Under the pieces are notes generated by a model. It did not search any database. It was not told where the DNA came from and saw only the letters and a program-made list of their open reading frames with translations. From a virus: a DNA stretch of 64,000 bases. This document shows, in pieces, positions 40,149 through 58,797 of the stretch (positions are counted from its first letter, which is position 1; every line of letters starts with the position of its first letter). Location of the stretch: IMG/VR virus record IMGVR_UViG_3300042863_001519, positions 1 to 64,000 of that record; one strand, written 5' to 3'. A program made the position numbers and the translations under genes.

Positions 40149-42224
40149 TTAAAACAAACTTATCTGACCACTTTCTTTCTCTTTTCTATCACGTTGATAT
40201 ATAGGAGAAATCTTGTCAATTATCTTATTGGTTGCACGTATGTAATACGTATAATCAATACCGTAGTCGTCCCAGTTTTCAGCACTAAAAGGTTTGTTGT
40301 ACAGTACCTGGAGCTCACTATCTGATTCACAATTGCTCTTCTCTGGACCTGTTTTATCACTGTTTGGGTTCTTCATCTTATACAACTTCTCACCAATACC
40401 TTTTGAGCAGTAATAACGTACTAGCTTGTTGAGATCAGTTACTGTACCAGTTTTTCTATCAACACTTCGATAGAAGTAATCCCTTGATGCTTTCTTGGCA
40501 ATACAGAAATCGAAGATGTTTCTATGACTTATCACAGTATCTTCAACCGGAATACCCTGAGTAAAGTACTTCTCTAATGCTATAGGAACAATACATTTAC
40601 TCTTGTTCTTGTGCAACTCATAACTTGTAAGGAAATCACCTTTCTTTTTTACTCTTTTGTCAAGAGGTTTGTCAATAACTATTGCTTTAAACTCACCATC
40701 TTTAAATACCCAGTCAGCTTTCTTTACTGCCAGATAATCATTAACGGATGTTTGTACAAACAATTCGTACTCTACATACTCCAAGTTACCAAGAATGTCA
40801 TTACCAACTTCTTCTTCCCATGTTTTACATGCATCATAATACTTCTGTACATAATCTTGATGAATCAGTACAGTAATACCATCGGTATTCATACTAGTTA
40901 TCTTGAGTGTTGGTATTTGTAGCAGATCCTCAGCTAACATAAATAGATCAACTTGACCACCAATAGTTACTTGCATACTTGCAAATGGGTCATATTGCCA
41001 ATCAAACCTATCACCAAGTCGGCCAAAATTCCCATTCATTACTAATTTATAACATTCTTGGAAATTATCATACTTCTTATCACCGGTTTCCTTATACAAC
41101 TTTTTAGCCTCTAGTCTCTTTGGAATGTTTATCACATATGCTTCATTCCACTTTGGTCCAAGGTGTGCAGGATAAATGTTTCTTTTACGTATGTTGTTAG
41201 GATACTGTGAGCCTACGTCAGCATCAATTAGTAGATAACCTTTAGGTATATCAATAATTCTAGGGTTATCTGCAGAGTGTACACCACCCTTTGCAAACAT
41301 TATTGTAATGTCAGTAAGAATAAATGGGAACTCCTGTTTTTCATTGAGATTAACCTTTGTCTTACCCAAGTTTGTAAAAAAGTTATTAAACTCAGCTGTA
41401 TCAAAATGAGTGTAGTCAGGAAAGCAATCCTTAAATCGGAAACCTGTTTTAGTTTTCCTCTCTTTTACTTTACTATACAACTGAGCTTCATTGATCTTTG
41501 CCAGATCCATGTACACTTTCTTGTTTAGCTCGGCACCGATCTTAACATCATTCCAGTTAATTGCAAGAGATGGAAACTTATACTCCTCAATAAGATCAAG
41601 TCGTAACTGTACTTTGTTCTTCCCTGCATAATCAGGATGATTAGTATTACCTACTGCAATGTTGTAGAGATTTGCTGTAGCAGCTACATCGTTCCAACAA
41701 TACTCAATAACTTCATCAATCTCTTCAGAAGTTAACTCTTCTTTACGAAAGTCAATAGGCAATTCTTCGATGTTACCATCTAAAGAAAACTCTCCAGCCC
41801 ACTTCAAAGAACATCTCTTGGCATCATTGTTGTAGTGAAACAACAGAAACAGATCAATCTGTTTGAAGTCAAGATAATGTTCTTTGTAGTGAGGTTGTAA
41901 TTCGTAGTTCCTATCATCAATCGTCTTTTGTGCAAACTCAAATATAGCTCTGATGATACGTTCAACCGGCCAGTGTATCCACAATGAACAGTTATCTACT
42001 ATAAACTGAAGTACTTGGGTATCAAAGTAAACTCCATTAAAAGTACAAAATCCCCATCTGTTATACTCAATTAAATGTTTTACAAGAGCATCTAATTGAT
42101 TTTTCCTAGATGAAATTTCATACTGAAATCTTTCATTAGTTTTTATATCAAGACCGCAAAACAAAAACATTGAGTAATAGGTTTCAATATCTATCACTTC
42201 TATTTTTAAATCTTCACTTTTCAT
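40149..42224 (-). CDS. polB: DNA polymerase, family B
   Basis: ExoI DIETY, ExoII FNG..FD, ExoIII YCWND; DVGSQYPN, KLVMNGNFG, NTDG. Confidence 0.95.
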   Translation of the reverse strand: MKSEDLKIEVIDIETYYSMFLFCGLDIKTNERFQYEISSRKNQLDALVKHLIEYNRWGFCTFNGVYFDTQVLQFIVDNCSLWIHWPVERIIRAIFEFAQKTIDDRNYELQPHYKEHYLDFKQIDLFLLFHYNNDAKRCSLKWAGEFSLDGNIEELPIDFRKEELTSEEIDEVIEYCWNDVAATANLYNIAVGNTNHPDYAGKNKVQLRLDLIEEYKFPSLAINWNDVKIGAELNKKVYMDLAKINEAQLYSKVKERKTKTGFRFKDCFPDYTHFDTAEFNNFFTNLGKTKVNLNEKQEFPFILTDITIMFAKGGVHSADNPRIIDIPKGYLLIDADVGSQYPNNIRKRNIYPAHLGPKWNEAYVINIPKRLEAKKLYKETGDKKYDNFQECYKLVMNGNFGRLGDRFDWQYDPFASMQVTIGGQVDLFMLAEDLLQIPTLKITSMNTDGITVLIHQDYVQKYYDACKTWEEEVGNDILGNLEYVEYELFVQTSVNDYLAVKKADWVFKDGEFKAIVIDKPLDKRVKKKGDFLTSYELHKNKSKCIVPIALEKYFTQGIPVEDTVISHRNIFDFCIAKKASRDYFYRSVDRKTGTVTDLNKLVRYYCSKGIGEKLYKMKNPNSDKTGPEKSNCESDSELQVLYNKPFSAENWDDYGIDYTYYIRATNKIIDKISPIYQRDRKEKESGQISLF

Positions 42225-42996
42225 TCTTTTTGGTTTTTATTCTATTATTTACAATAGGGTATCTATCATACATCAAAAGAAATTCCTTAATTTTTCTACA
42301 ATTTGCTGCATATATTCTTACAGTAGATGTTGCACAGTTTAAATAATTTGCACATTTTTCATCATTATTAAAAGTTTCAACAACTGTGTAATCTAAATTA
42401 CAAAGCAATAGTGTTCTTCTATTTTTAAAAGTTTTTCCTTTTGTTTTGCTAATTCTTTTTTCTATAGAAGATTTACTTTTTTTCTTACCTTTCCAATAAT
42501 CACTTATTTTCTTTTTATGATCAATTGTTAAAAGTTTTCCTGTATTTGCTGCAATAATTGCGGATAAAGTATTAGGGTGCTGAGGTCTTCCTTTCATTTG
42601 TTTTGATTTTTTTGCCTTAAAATCATCACTATGTCGAAAACCTGCATTTGTGCCGGCTATTTGAACAATATTGTACTTTAATTCTATTGGATATTTATCT
42701 AAATAAAATTGTTCACGAGAGAGTATAAATTTTATCATTTCTTGCTTTGAAACAAACTGACTTTTATCATACTGTTCAATAATCTCAAAATAAAAATTAT
42801 CTGCACCATACTTGTTATAAGCATTTTGCATCTTTTTACAACCGTGTACATTTTTATTTAGTTCTTTTAAATGTAGATGATACCTGTTACTAAAACTACA
42901 AAAAGAACTGCCTATATAAACTTTGTTTGAAATAGGAGTATATATTTGATATACTCCTATTTTTATACCTTCTCCTCTTATTAGTAATGATTTCAT
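42214..42996 (-). CDS. GIY-YIG homing endonuclease with NUMOD3-like repeats, free-standing
   Basis: GVYQI...VYIGSS, REQFYLD, YNI, HSDDFKAK; likely start MKSL, 4 nt after TATTTTTG. Confidence 0.9.
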   Translation of the reverse strand: MKSLLIRGEGIKIGVYQIYTPISNKVYIGSSFCSFSNRYHLHLKELNKNVHGCKKMQNAYNKYGADNFYFEIIEQYDKSQFVSKQEMIKFILSREQFYLDKYPIELKYNIVQIAGTNAGFRHSDDFKAKKSKQMKGRPQHPNTLSAIIAANTGKLLTIDHKKKISDYWKGKKKSKSSIEKRISKTKGKTFKNRRTLLLCNLDYTVVETFNNDEKCANYLNCATSTVRIYAANCRKIKEFLLMYDRYPIVNNRIKTKKNEK

Positions 42997-43070
42997 TTTA
43001 CAAAAATAGTAAAATTTTATCAAAGTTTACGACTTTAAAAATAAAATCTCTAATCTGAGTTCTTCTGTCT

Positions 43071-48579: not shown

Positions 48580-49455
48580 CAGGTATGTTAACTTATAGTT
48601 TCCTATAAGATCGGACTATATCATCACCCTTCTCATTAAGAGTTAGGGGCCGGGCACTTATACTGGTAATTAAGAACACTATAGTTCTCCAGTAGTCTCT
48701 GAACCTTTATAGAGTGTACTCTATACTTGGATGCTGATTGGCATATCATTTCTGACTTAGCTTTCCAGCAGTTCACCTCGGTTTTTATTTTCATCCATCT
48801 CTGGAAGGGGTTTCATGGCTCTTTTGTAATTTCTAAGTTCTAAAATAGACATAGGTTTGAGATACTCTTTTTCAAAGTTGCAACTAGCAAAATCTTTAAA
48901 ATAATATCTGTTTGCAGAATCATAAAATATAGCAGCATAAAAAGAATCTTTAAATCTTCCAATTTTTGTTGGACCAGCTCCTTTTTTTATAGTAATTGAA
49001 GAGGAATAATAATGATAAATTTTTCTACCGTTATTATCAGATGTAAGTTGTACACCTCTATATCCGGTTTTATTATCTACCCTTAATAACTTCTTTTTAC
49101 TATTGTTTTCATTAGTACATACTCTAAGATTAACAATTCTATTGTCATCTTTTATGTTGTTAATATGATCAATTTGCATATTATCAGGAATTAATGTACC
49201 TGTATGCAAAAACCAACATAATCTGTGGTATGTGCTTCTATATTCTATATTATCTACTGTAATGTAGATACATTCTCTATAACCTTTTATTGTCTTTCTT
49301 GTGTAAAGTCTATTTTTACGAATGTTGTTTATCTCACCAGTATTGAGATCATAACTAAACATACGCTTGAACACATCTTTTACTCTTTCAGAACTTGCTT
49401 CATTAAATGTTTTTCGGACTCTTTTCATGAAGCAAATATACAAAATTTTATTCTT
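48580..49455 (-). ncRNA. Group I intron (876 nt) with homing endonuclease in the P1 loop
   Basis: Exon U before the 5' splice site; terminal G; IGS GAGCCAUGAAACCC (48821-48808) pairs with both exons; core segments AACUGCUGGAAA, AAUCAGCA, UUCAGAGACUA, GAUAUAGUCC. Confidence 0.93.
48757..49428 (-). CDS. Intron-encoded HNH-AP2 homing endonuclease
   Basis: YHRLCW...IDHINNIKDDNRIVNLR; NKTGYRGV...IGRF...AAIFYD is AP2-like; likely start MKRV. Confidence 0.9.
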   Translation of the reverse strand: MKRVRKTFNEASSERVKDVFKRMFSYDLNTGEINNIRKNRLYTRKTIKGYRECIYITVDNIEYRSTYHRLCWFLHTGTLIPDNMQIDHINNIKDDNRIVNLRVCTNENNSKKKLLRVDNKTGYRGVQLTSDNNGRKIYHYYSSSITIKKGAGPTKIGRFKDSFYAAIFYDSANRYYFKDFASCNFEKEYLKPMSILELRNYKRAMKPLPEMDENKNRGELLES

Positions 49456-52891: not shown

Positions 52892-53275
52892 TTATATAAG
52901 TGTTATTGCTTTTTCAATTACTGCTTGTCTTGCTTCATGATAAGATTCTGCCGCACCTCCAACATTTATGTAACAATCAACAAAATACCAACGATATAAT
53001 AACATAGTTGTAACACCCCTGCTAGTAGCAAAATCAACTAAATCTTTATCGTTCCTAGCTATGACAATGTGAATATTACGTTTCTCTCTAAACCAATCAA
53101 TGACTTGTTGCCAGAGTGGAGCTGCAATACATTCGCCTATACTCCTGAAGTTTTTAAAATCTGTATCGATTGGTTGTATTTCTTTTTCCCCGTCAAAATA
53201 AGCAAAACACTGTTTATCGAATCCTTTTTCCCTTAAATTAAGTGCTATCTCGTATGGTACAAATTCTTCTTCCAT
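52892..53275 (-). CDS. Hypothetical Bacteroidota-phage protein
   Basis: EFVPYEIAL.L.EKGFD...APLWQQVIDWFREK. Confidence 0.7.
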   Translation of the reverse strand: MEEEFVPYEIALNLREKGFDKQCFAYFDGEKEIQPIDTDFKNFRSIGECIAAPLWQQVIDWFREKRNIHIVIARNDKDLVDFATSRGVTTMLLYRWYFVDCYINVGGAAESYHEARQAVIEKAITLI

Positions 53276-53311
53276 GTTTGTATGTGTTTTTAAAAAGTTT
53301 CAGAAATAATA

Positions 53312-53353
53312 AAAATAAAAAAGAGAGTAGTGATCGAACAACACTACTCTCTT
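53312..53353 (-). terminator. Intrinsic terminator
   Basis: agagagtagtg/cactactctct stem plus U-run on the minus strand. Confidence 0.75.
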
Positions 53354-53420
53354 AGTTTGTTGGCATACGTTTGTCTGGTGACAACACTCATGTATACCTG
53401 TATAGCCATGGCAGCTATTG

Positions 53421-53441
53421 TGGACCTGCTCGGAGTCGAAC
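53421..53441 (-). other. Orphan tmRNA/tRNA 3' end (T-loop, T-stem 3' arm, acceptor 3' strand)
   Basis: GTTCGACTCCGAGCAGGTCCA directly after the HNH stop codon. Confidence 0.7.
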
Positions 53442-53981
53442 TTACACTGATTGATATGTTCTACCAGCACTAATATCCCTTATTACAGTCTCTTTTATTT
53501 TAAACTGTATAGCGATGTCTTTTACTTTCTTTTCTTTAGTTGCTAATAGTCTTTTTATTTCTATAGCATTTTCTCTAGACAGCTTTCTATTGCATATAGA
53601 TTGAAACTCTATTACTTTAGGCACATGATCAAACTTAGAGTAATGACCATGTACATATCTGCCATTTTGTTTTCCTTTAGCTTGTCTGAACTTGTTTACT
53701 TTATCTTGACAGTTGTCATTGTGTGTACCTACAGACAGATGAAAAGGATTTACACATGCTGGTACATCACAAGAATGCATGATTACTTTTCCTTCTGGTA
53801 TAGTTCTGTTATAGTAATACATATAAGCAACCCTATGTGCTCTATGATGTAGTTTACATCCATCTACAACTTCTTGAATAATACCATAGCCATCTCTACC
53901 TAGTCTTTTGTATAGTATACATTCGTTCTTATCTATATTCTGCAGATAAGGCTTTATTCTATTCATTACGCTTGTTGTCAT
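53442..53981 (-). CDS. HNH homing endonuclease (His-Cys type), free-standing
   Basis: DGYG...AHRVAY...VIMHSCDVPACVNPFHL..GTH.DN..D. Confidence 0.92.
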   Translation of the reverse strand: MTTSVMNRIKPYLQNIDKNECILYKRLGRDGYGIIQEVVDGCKLHHRAHRVAYMYYYNRTIPEGKVIMHSCDVPACVNPFHLSVGTHNDNCQDKVNKFRQAKGKQNGRYVHGHYSKFDHVPKVIEFQSICNRKLSRENAIEIKRLLATKEKKVKDIAIQFKIKETVIRDISAGRTYQSV

Positions 53982-54006
53982 ATCTCTATATTTTCAACAA
54001 AGATAA

Positions 54007-54049
54007 TAAAAAAGTGGAACTAATCTACATTAATAGTTCCACTTTTTTT
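54007..54049 (-). terminator. Terminator hairpin after tmRNA, abutting the HNH promoter (TATCTTTG at 54005-53998)
   Basis: aaaaaagtggaacta/tagttccactttttt inverted repeat. Confidence 0.75.
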
Positions 54050-54053
54050 GTAG

Positions 54054-54420
54054 TGGACCCGGAGGCATCCGAGAGCCTCGTCCAAACAGTGTTCCTCTCA
54101 AAAAAGTTACGACTATGACTTGTTTTTACTCTGCTGTCTTCAGAGATGCTTGAAAGTTCTGCATAATCTACATCTACTTACAACGTCAATAGTTTTTATT
54201 TTAAACAGTCAGATTTCTCTTCTTATCTGTGGTGAATTAGGCTGCTTCTGCTACTAGAGCATTTGCAAAGCACATATTAATAATACGTGCACCTTCTTCC
54301 TGACGAGCAACTTTTTCGTTGTTTGCATCTATTGTTTGAATCTATTTATTTAAAGGACTACATCCTTGTCCTTAGTCGCCTTTTCTACTATACTAGCTGC
54401 TGTCAAAACCAATCGGGCCC
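54054..54420 (-). ncRNA. ssrA: Phage-encoded tmRNA
   Basis: 5' GGGCCCGATTGGTTTTGAC; acceptor GGGCCCG/CGGGTCC-A with G3.U; tag frame 54326-54237 reads ANNEKVARQEEGARIINMCFANALVAEAA*; 367 nt; upstream TATTTTTG. Confidence 0.92.
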
Positions 54421-54485
54421 ATATTGTAATAATACACTCTGATCAGTTTCCTAACCAGAGTGCAAAAATAAACTAATAAACTTAA

Positions 54486-54638
54486 TTAGTTTGCTAATTT
54501 CTCAACAGTTTCTACAACAACATCATCATGTCCTACATCACGGTATTCATTGGCTAAATAGTCAGCTTCTTCTTTTGTAAGAAGGTAATTATTAACCTCA
54601 ATGCCCCCTACCCAAACGGTGTAAATCTTTTGTTTCAT
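54486..54638 (-). CDS. Small hypothetical protein, 50 aa (not in ORF track)
   Basis: MKQKIYTVWVGGIEVN...VEKLAN. Confidence 0.6.
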   Translation of the reverse strand: MKQKIYTVWVGGIEVNNYLLTKEEADYLANEYRDVGHDDVVVETVEKLAN

Positions 54639-54642
54639 AATA

Positions 54643-54906
54643 TTAGTTTGCTAATTTTTCAGCATGTTCATACTGTAACCATGTTTTATTTCGACCATCT
54701 GGGTGTTTCCAAACATTGTATTCTGTTTGATCATAGCAATAACCAGCTGCACCAAAGTGACCATTATCAACTACACATACCATGTTTGGTACAAACTCTT
54801 CATTTGATATTCTTGTAGCACCATCTGCTATAAGTGACCTTACTTTCTGATCAAAGCTTGAACCCAGTGGTAAGCTTCTGCTATCTTGGTTGATATACTT
54901 TCCCAT
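54643..54906 (-). CDS. Hypothetical phage protein
   Basis: VCVVDNG.F.AAGYC...DGR.K.WL. Confidence 0.7.
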   Translation of the reverse strand: MGKYINQDSRSLPLGSSFDQKVRSLIADGATRISNEEFVPNMVCVVDNGHFGAAGYCYDQTEYNVWKHPDGRNKTWLQYEHAEKLAN

Positions 54907-58714: not shown

Positions 58715-58797
58715 GATCTGTGTGTTTTTAGAGCGTGAATAATAAAATCGAAAAAAAAGGGGAGTTGAACCCCTTCCCCGGCCTTTAACCGATTTTT

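Follow-up and report, generated by a model that had tools for sequence, protein, structure and literature searches.

How can a gene for a structural RNA be invaded at its 3′ end and still be complete? The question is raised by a transfer-messenger RNA (tmRNA) gene in IMG/VR virus record IMGVR_UViG_3300042863_001519. This record has 94.8 kb and is about 74% complete; its first 64 kb (64,000 nucleotides, nt) were analyzed here and are called the window. The tmRNA gene is followed by a terminator, a gene for a free-standing HNH endonuclease and then a second, orphan tmRNA 3′ end. All of these features lie on the minus strand. An earlier note on this DNA had described such a layout, including an odd 8-nt T loop between perfectly paired stems, and we found every part of it in place. 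The answer to the question is that the tmRNA gene stays whole: its last 26 nt are supplied by the insert as a foreign copy, and the old end has been moved ca. 640 nt downstream. We consider it probable that this is a homing element that moves by replacing the terminus of an RNA gene. The genome is that of an uncultured lake-water crAss-like phage of the lytic type. The closest relatives of its DNA polymerase are those of a Maribacter phage and of crAss-like phages, and many lake-water metagenomes hold DNA near-identical to the window. A blastn comparison of the locus with 50,697 phage records gave no match.

Is the resident tmRNA a complete gene? It spans 54420..54051 and matches Rfam model RF00023 with 62.1 bits (E = 7.5e-22), above the gathering threshold of 47 and over the full model (positions 1-374); ARAGORN detected no tmRNA in the window. 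The 5′ acceptor strand, GGGCCCG, lies at 54420..54414, and the 3′ end, at 54083..54054, reads GGAC-GAGGC-TCTCGGAT-GCCTC-CGGGTCC-A. A scan based on structure only recovered a single tRNA-like domain, in which the T stem (GAGGC/GCCUC) is paired at five of five positions and the acceptor stem (GGGCCCG/CGGGTCC) at seven of seven, including a G3.U pair. The T loop is the 8-nt UCUCGGAU, which departs from the canonical 7-nt UUCRANU and is also found in the tmRNA of a relative, L127 (the loci used for comparison are designated by L and a number). CCA is not encoded, and the discriminator A at 54054 is the probable 3′ end of the mature RNA. The tag reading frame (54237..54326, with the resume codon as placed by the Rfam alignment) has 29 codons and a TAA stop. 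The resulting peptide is long (29 aa) and finishes in ..AEAA, i.e., with the two C-terminal alanines. Its core, RQEEGARIINMCFANA, is kept as a peptide across related phages with the codons changed synonymously, and a homologous tag was read by ARAGORN in L032 and L119.

The orphan 3′ end (53421..53441) is made up of a G, the T loop TTCGACT, the 3′ T-stem arm CCGAG, the acceptor strand CAGGTCC and the discriminator A. The stretch TTCGACT-CCGAG-CAGGTCC-A (53440..53421) begins 1 base past the TAA stop of the HNH gene and occurs only once in the window at ≤3 mismatches, with shuffled sequences giving an expectation of 0. As had been claimed from the letters, its acceptor strand can pair with the 5′ strand of the tmRNA at six of the seven positions, the remaining one being a C.A mismatch. 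This stub, with a full canonical T loop and no 5′ stem partner, was the only one of its kind among 18 loci scanned. L028 has the same T loop and acceptor strand, and the position of the stub is homologous to that of the true 3′ end of the tmRNA in L119, a 133.6-kb phage contig retrieved from IMG/VR by a pattern drawn from the tmRNA body.

L119, a close relative, provides the empty site. Its tmRNA is canonical, ends in TTTGGAC-ACGGG-TTCGACT-CCCGT-CGGTTCC-A and has no HNH gene behind it. The blastn alignment with the window falls into two blocks, the first running from the promoter region through ..TTTGGAC and ending at window position 54080, and the second restarting at 53441 (G-TTCGACT) and continuing through the trailer and terminator. 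The flanks of the junction are identical at 37 of 40 and 129 of 140 positions. The latter value corresponds to the ancestral tmRNA trailer (53302..53420), in which two small hairpins accompany the strong original intrinsic terminator (hairpin 53353..53321 and U run); it is found directly behind the tmRNA in L119 and now downstream of the HNH gene in the window. Along the T arm itself, the resident copy and L119 share only 2 of 5, 1 of 7 and 2 of 5 positions. Between the two blocks there are 4 nt in L119 versus 638 nt in the window (53442..54079), and therefore the insertion replaced the 5′ T-stem arm. What came in was a cassette with a foreign T arm, acceptor strand, terminator and HNH gene, which displaced the old 3′ end, so that the T loop, 3′ T-stem arm, acceptor strand, trailer and terminator of the recipient are now a nonfunctional stub ca. 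640 nt downstream. The entry of an endonuclease cassette that displaces the ancestral 3′ end and supplies a replacement, as proposed in the earlier note, is thus borne out by these breakpoints, at the junction of T stem and T loop. The ending predicted for alleles without the HNH gene was right in kind, with a canonical TTCGACT loop in L119 and L028 and the same trailer in L119, and wrong in its exact letters. Contigs from four runs of lake-water sequencing cover parts of the locus, and the stretches that they leave uncovered carry no information; in the RNA runs, only 5% of the words were present. One contig of 988 nt, from run X12, joins window position 54077 to 53423 via 242 other letters in place of 653 nt, replacing the T arm, HNH gene and orphan segment; it has 6 differences to the tmRNA body and 5 to the trailer. 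It is a third allele type, possibly with a small T-loop intron or a decayed cassette.

What does the cassette carry? The foreign replacement 3′ end (54054..54079) comprises the T arm (54079..54062), the acceptor strand CGGGTCC (54061..54055) and the discriminator A (54054). Next comes a hairpin that serves as the cassette-borne terminator of the tmRNA (54008..54048; 15 bp, 11-nt loop and U run), with a folding energy of −34.6 kcal/mol (z = −4.8); its 3′ half and the adjoining TTATTATCTTT are the first stretch homologous to the cassette of L003. The promoter that had been suspected behind it is not of the sigma-70 type: a scan for sigma-70 promoters and simple terminators gave nothing relevant on the minus strand, the loop limit of the terminator scan being shorter than the loops of both real hairpins. 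A motif of the Bacteroidota-type −7 class, TATCTTTG (53998..54005), is present 16 nt upstream of the HNH start codon. TAnnTTTG was found within 60 nt upstream of 10 of the 77 minus-strand open reading frames (ORFs), against 2.9 expected at random positions, and TATCTTTG may act as a promoter-like −7 motif for the HNH gene. This gene (53442..53981) codes for a free-standing HNH_3 endonuclease of 179 aa (Pfam PF13392, E = 6e-9; PHROG HNH families, down to E = 4e-21). It is an intact ORF, outside any intron or intein, with the terminator and TAnnTTTG motif upstream. The HNH domain is N-terminal, and the residues of its motif are invariant in 10 homologues (94 to 47% identity). The C-terminal segment is also conserved and looks like a helix-turn-helix. 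A sequence search of the Protein Data Bank with the HNH profile gave no match.

Could the insert be spliced out, or have been brought in by an integrase? A degenerate group I intron in the T loop would turn the stub into a real 3′ exon. Such introns have been described from four subsites of this loop in tmRNA, some of them with homing endonuclease genes (PMC11915505), and other group I introns are present in this phage group (window 48852..48592 and the tRNA-Arg gene of L030). However, Intron_gpI had no match at E ≤ 10 in 53000-54700, though real introns were detected, and a whole resident gene with perfect pairing precedes the HNH gene. With the stub joined to the body, GGAC and the T stem would be separated by 6 extra nt, and the stub of L003 has no 5′ stem partner and could not pair with the 5′ acceptor strand. 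With no ribozyme core and with exon ends that do not rebuild the T arm, splicing is excluded as far as sequence can tell, and we give it next to no probability. The other possibility is that the insert is the remnant of an integrase-driven island or prophage attached at the tmRNA 3′ end and the stub its attR. Integrase-driven islands are described for tmRNA genes (PMC11915505). These genes are classic integration sites, where islands leave a displaced 3′ fragment. Nevertheless, no recombinase is present: the 638 nt contain no long ORF other than the HNH gene. The two copies share only ca. 7 nt (TCCAC..), with no att core, and the host is itself a lytic-type crAss-like phage genome. On content, we rejected this origin, which seems extremely improbable. 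The statement that the locus has neither integrase nor intron core stands.

Where did the functional end come from? The T arm was thought to have been remodeled in place, and here the comparisons say otherwise. The 18-mer GAGGC-TCTCGGAT-GCCTC is identical (18/18) in the distant L127 and L124, with the tmRNA otherwise only ca. 54% identical. L127 has neither an HNH gene nor a stub. Because the same 18-mer ends an HNH-free, orphan-free tmRNA in L127/L124, the T arm of the window is a preexisting allele module that came from a donor. The CTCGG inside the odd loop, previously taken for a remnant of the old stem arm, is a coincidence, since the same 18-nt arm is found in L127 without a matching orphan. 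Six of the eight IMG/VR matches to the 18-nt arm were GC-rich coding sequences and are due to chance. A parallel case is L003, in which the T arm is identical (17/17) to that of HNH-free L034 (the L034-36 type). Its stub, CCACC-CGGGTCC-AC, equals the 3′ end of L030, also HNH-free (14/14), and is unable to pair with the 5′ strand of L003, GGGGGTG. The functional ends of the window and L003 are foreign modules, and each stub looks like the local canonical allele and not like a decayed copy. The odd 8-nt loop arrived with the donor T arm and is an allele type that exists without the nuclease as well. An HNH-free relative with both the odd loop and the orphan was sought and none was found; the HNH-free alleles with odd loops have no orphan.

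Is the window an isolated case? Ten further loci of the phage group were recovered from IMG/VR and Joint Genome Institute metagenomes with a degenerate pattern for the conserved tag peptide, and an alignment of the HNH homologues yielded 80 loci. The site is filled in the window, L003, L040 and L041 and empty in L119, L028, L030, L032, L034-38 and L025. In all four of the closest HNH relatives with readable DNA (the window; L003, 65% identity; L040, 47%; L041, 38%), the HNH gene is located directly behind the tmRNA gene; among more distant HNH_3 loci, 0 of 82 were directly behind a tmRNA-like domain. The succession of tmRNA end, HNH gene and duplicate end seen in the window is repeated in two of the others. 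L003 has the resident end CTCGG-GGCAGTG-CCGAG-CACCTCC-A, with a second type of odd loop, and the stub ..GT-CCACC-CGGGTCC-A after the HNH gene. L040 has the canonical resident end AGGGG-TTCGACT-CCCCT-CAGCTCC-A and the stub TC-CTCCT-CAGCTCC-A; the resident end of L041 is also canonical. The three stubs (window, L003 and L040) start inside the T loop and abut the HNH stop codon. Empty sites include L028, ending in CTGAG-TTCGACT-CTCAG-CAGGTCC-A, and L037 (Ga0214175_1002261), with a 6-nt T loop, TTCGAT (UUCGAU), between perfect stems. Rfam misses the tmRNAs of L003 and L127, and ARAGORN finds 3 of the 12 distinct alleles.

A skeptical view would be that the stub is a passive scar: an ordinary free-standing nuclease, with another target or none, would have landed once by illegitimate recombination, leaving a stub without any role, and the arrangement would have spread by general phage recombination. 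The tmRNA genes of this phage group are indeed highly mosaic even without the HNH gene, the same odd arms are found on HNH-free alleles, L041 has no stub, and the difference between L003 and L034 resembles a simple insertion behind ..TCCACAA with a 7-nt repeat on its flanks. However, a single landing does not sit well with HNH genes of 38 to 65% identity at the same position in four phage backgrounds. Nor does it explain that all three stubs start within the T loop, right at the HNH stop, or that they match local canonical alleles, with no single ancestral stub. We think that this explanation is rather unlikely, and homing by replacement of the terminus is the reading that we prefer.

How mosaic these genes are was revealed by a sliding comparison. 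The tRNA-like halves of L003 are similar to L034, and its middle part is identical to L032 (30/30); the window departs from its similarity to L119 only in the pseudoknot region and the T arm. Between L032 and L038, the 40 nt upstream, the loop and the acceptor strand are the same and two fully compensated T-stem pairs differ, and this difference points to the T arm as a hot spot of recombination or selection. Another tmRNA, that of L028 (1491-1852), has two mismatches at the base of the acceptor stem (GGGCCCA versus CAGGTCC). Its acceptor 5′ strand and the next 60 nt recur without any difference in L037, where the 3′ strand pairs perfectly. L028 has the look of a recombinant in which the 3′ end has ceased to fit the 5′ end. 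The alleles with the GGCAGTG T loop (L003, L034, L035 and L036) have a D-loop analogue without GG (ACACAGATTTTGA), which suggests a coevolved nonstandard elbow. In the tmRNA of L038 (Ga0181344_1053508), which has 443 nt, there are ca. 70 extra nt upstream of the tag relative to the otherwise very similar L032.

How would the element move? Starting from what is observed (the architecture, the breakpoints, the presence/absence polymorphism, a foreign functional end, a native stub and an intact nuclease), the following series of events can be proposed. The mobile unit would be made up of the last 26 nt of the donor tmRNA (T arm, acceptor strand and discriminator), the terminator, the promoter and the HNH_3 gene. 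During coinfection, the HNH enzyme would nick or cut the tmRNA gene of a phage that has no HNH gene, in the T loop or next to it. The left break end would then invade the tmRNA body of the donor and copy the donor 3′ end and the HNH gene. The right break end, which starts in the T loop, would anneal to the stub behind the HNH gene of the donor and be kept as the new stub. In this way, each new host would keep its own former 3′ end as a stub, i.e., as a portable right-hand homology arm. A course of this kind has been proposed for the WHO elements of yeasts at FBA1 (PMC7282813).

Several observations weigh against this proposal. There is no homology between the replacement T arm of the window and that of L003, and the two cassettes become clearly homologous only in the terminator; therefore, the 3′ end is that of the last donor and not a fixed part of the element. 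Both odd T arms are found in alleles with neither HNH gene nor stub (L127/L124 and L034-36), and these alleles may either be ancestral to the donors or have arisen by loss of the HNH gene. The stem arm and acceptor strand of the window stub differ from L119 at 5 of 12 positions, i.e., the exact recipient allele was not found. In L041 the HNH gene lies behind the tmRNA, yet no clear stub follows it. We infer the target site of the enzyme, in or next to the T loop, from the breakpoints only. The T loops of L040 and L041 are still canonical, and hence immunity of the resident copy is not obvious. Finally, the sample of HNH-bearing loci with readable DNA is small (n = 4: the window, L003, L040 and L041).

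The earlier note took the replacement end to be cleavage resistant, and the circumstantial evidence for this is mixed. The odd T loop itself might be the determinant of immunity. The cassette would then carry or select for such a loop because the nuclease reads the canonical TTCGA(A/C)T, and the odd alleles without the HNH gene would be escape variants or cassettes that have lost the nuclease. Three independent departures from the canonical loop in one small clade (the 8-nt UCUCGGAU, GGCAGUG and the 6-nt UUCGAU) would fit, as would the odd loops on both close HNH-bearing alleles (window and L003) and the canonical loops of all three stubs and most empty sites. Against it, L040 and L041 carry the HNH gene together with the canonical TTCGACT loop, and in the L003/L034 type the D loop is without its GG as well, suggesting a coevolved elbow over a quick escape mutation. 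Counting alleles, odd loops occur in 2 of 4 HNH-bearing versus 3 of 9 distinct HNH-free ones, which is no association, and we rejected the notion that the odd loop goes with the HNH gene. Immunity conferred by the loop is thus conceivable, although we lean against it. A broader version, which we offer only tentatively and would not bet on, is that the T arm of this clade is a battleground with the nuclease. Repeated attack by the HNH enzyme would drive the exchange and diversification of T arms, UCUCGGAU and GGCAGUG (with its D loop without GG) would be functional escape elbows, and the stub would be a required portable homology arm.

Are there precedents for such an element? A full-text search of the published literature gave no account of a free-standing nuclease cassette that replaces a tmRNA end and no phage or RNA-gene case of this kind. 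The closest published analogues are the WHO elements of yeasts and the mORFs of fungal mitochondria. WHO elements replace the 3′ end of FBA1 in Torulaspora/Lachancea, and the leftover fragment serves as a homology arm (Coughlan et al. 2020, PMC7282813). As in our case, an endonuclease gene sits between a donor-derived full-length gene end and the former end of the recipient, the leftover fragment is proposed to be a homology arm, there is no splicing, and the target gene shows chimeric evolution at its 3′ end, where relationships are discordant. The differences are that the target here is a structural RNA gene of a phage and not a protein gene of a diploid yeast, that the nuclease is an HNH_3 and not an intein/LAGLIDADG-like enzyme, and that the piece replaced is only 26 nt. 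Allele-specific cleavage was demonstrated for WHO, whereas the present element is known from its sequence. The fungal mORFs (Allomyces atp6, Paquin et al. 1994; Glomus atp6, atp9, cox2 and nad3, PMC3630166) carry a foreign C terminus. There too, a foreign terminus and an endonuclease ORF displace the native terminus, which resembles close relatives, unlike the inserted one. They are found in organelle protein genes, often with the ORF fused in frame, whereas here the acceptor strand must pair with an untouched 5′ strand 350 nt away, a constraint that requires compensatory change or coconversion of the 5′ end.

A phage case is T4 SegB, a GIY-YIG homing endonuclease of the tRNA cluster that recognizes the DNA of the TΨC stem-loop of tRNA genes, this conserved motif being part of its 27-bp site (PMC2330249). 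Like our HNH protein, it is a free-standing phage nuclease encoded beside tRNA-like genes, and it spreads with flanking markers in coinfection (“intronless homing”). Unlike it, SegB lies between genes, with no duplicated gene end, belongs to another nuclease family and has had its homing shown experimentally. Group I introns in the tmRNA TΨC loop (PMC11915505) invade the same nucleotides of the same gene, sometimes with a homing endonuclease gene; function is kept there by splicing and here by a spare 3′ end, with no ribozyme core. Integrase-driven islands and prophages are also found in bacterial tmRNA genes (PMC11915505). Such elements supply a replacement 3′ end and leave the displaced fragment to mark their far boundary, but the present insert has no integrase or att core, has 0.64 kb versus many kb and is part of a phage genome.

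Other features were noted in the same genomes. In the window, there is a group I intron at 48592-48852 (minus strand; Rfam, 70.9 bits), and the end of a GIY-YIG-like ORF (42214-43023, minus strand) falls 11 nt inside the start of the DNA polymerase gene (40149-42224, minus strand). A T-arm look-alike, GGGG-TTCAACT-CCCC followed by a T run (58758-58774, minus strand), appears to be a terminator behind an ORF; it matches the tmRNA model weakly, and a comparable weak match was found in the L003 contig (L026). An ORF of 127 aa (52892-53275, minus strand; PHROG 25117, unknown function) separates the tmRNA trailer from the MKKTVQIV gene and is absent from that place in L119. In L030 (Ga0114981_10007757, ca. 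285-1000), the tRNA-Arg(TCT) gene behind the tmRNA is split in the anticodon loop by ca. 650 nt. These contain a different HNH ORF together with a group I core that Intron_gpI matches with 34.3 bits (E = 1e-6), less than the gathering score, and then comes the 3′ half of the tRNA. A noncoding block of ca. 170 nt is present between the tRNA-Arg gene and the next gene in L003 (4665-4830) and also in L030, L032, L034-36 and L127. It has hairpins and no Rfam match at the gathering score, and this conserved block may be an unknown small RNA.

What does the element mean for these phages and for tmRNA biology? Homing by terminus replacement, published for nuclear and mitochondrial protein genes of eukaryotes, would be extended to phages and to a structural RNA gene. 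Homing of the cassette would explain the mosaicism of tmRNA in these phages and the T-stem differences between otherwise identical genes. It may also help to explain why standard finders miss these tmRNA genes, and short tmRNA 3′ stubs could be misread as integration scars. The two noncanonical T loops in apparently intact tmRNAs provide a handle on what alanylation and SmpB binding need from the elbow. If the T arm were truly contested by the nuclease in this manner, a structural RNA gene could be invaded by a self-contained route that needs no splicing, whatever lies downstream of the target, and these phages would offer a natural test of the need of tmRNA for a canonical TΨC loop.

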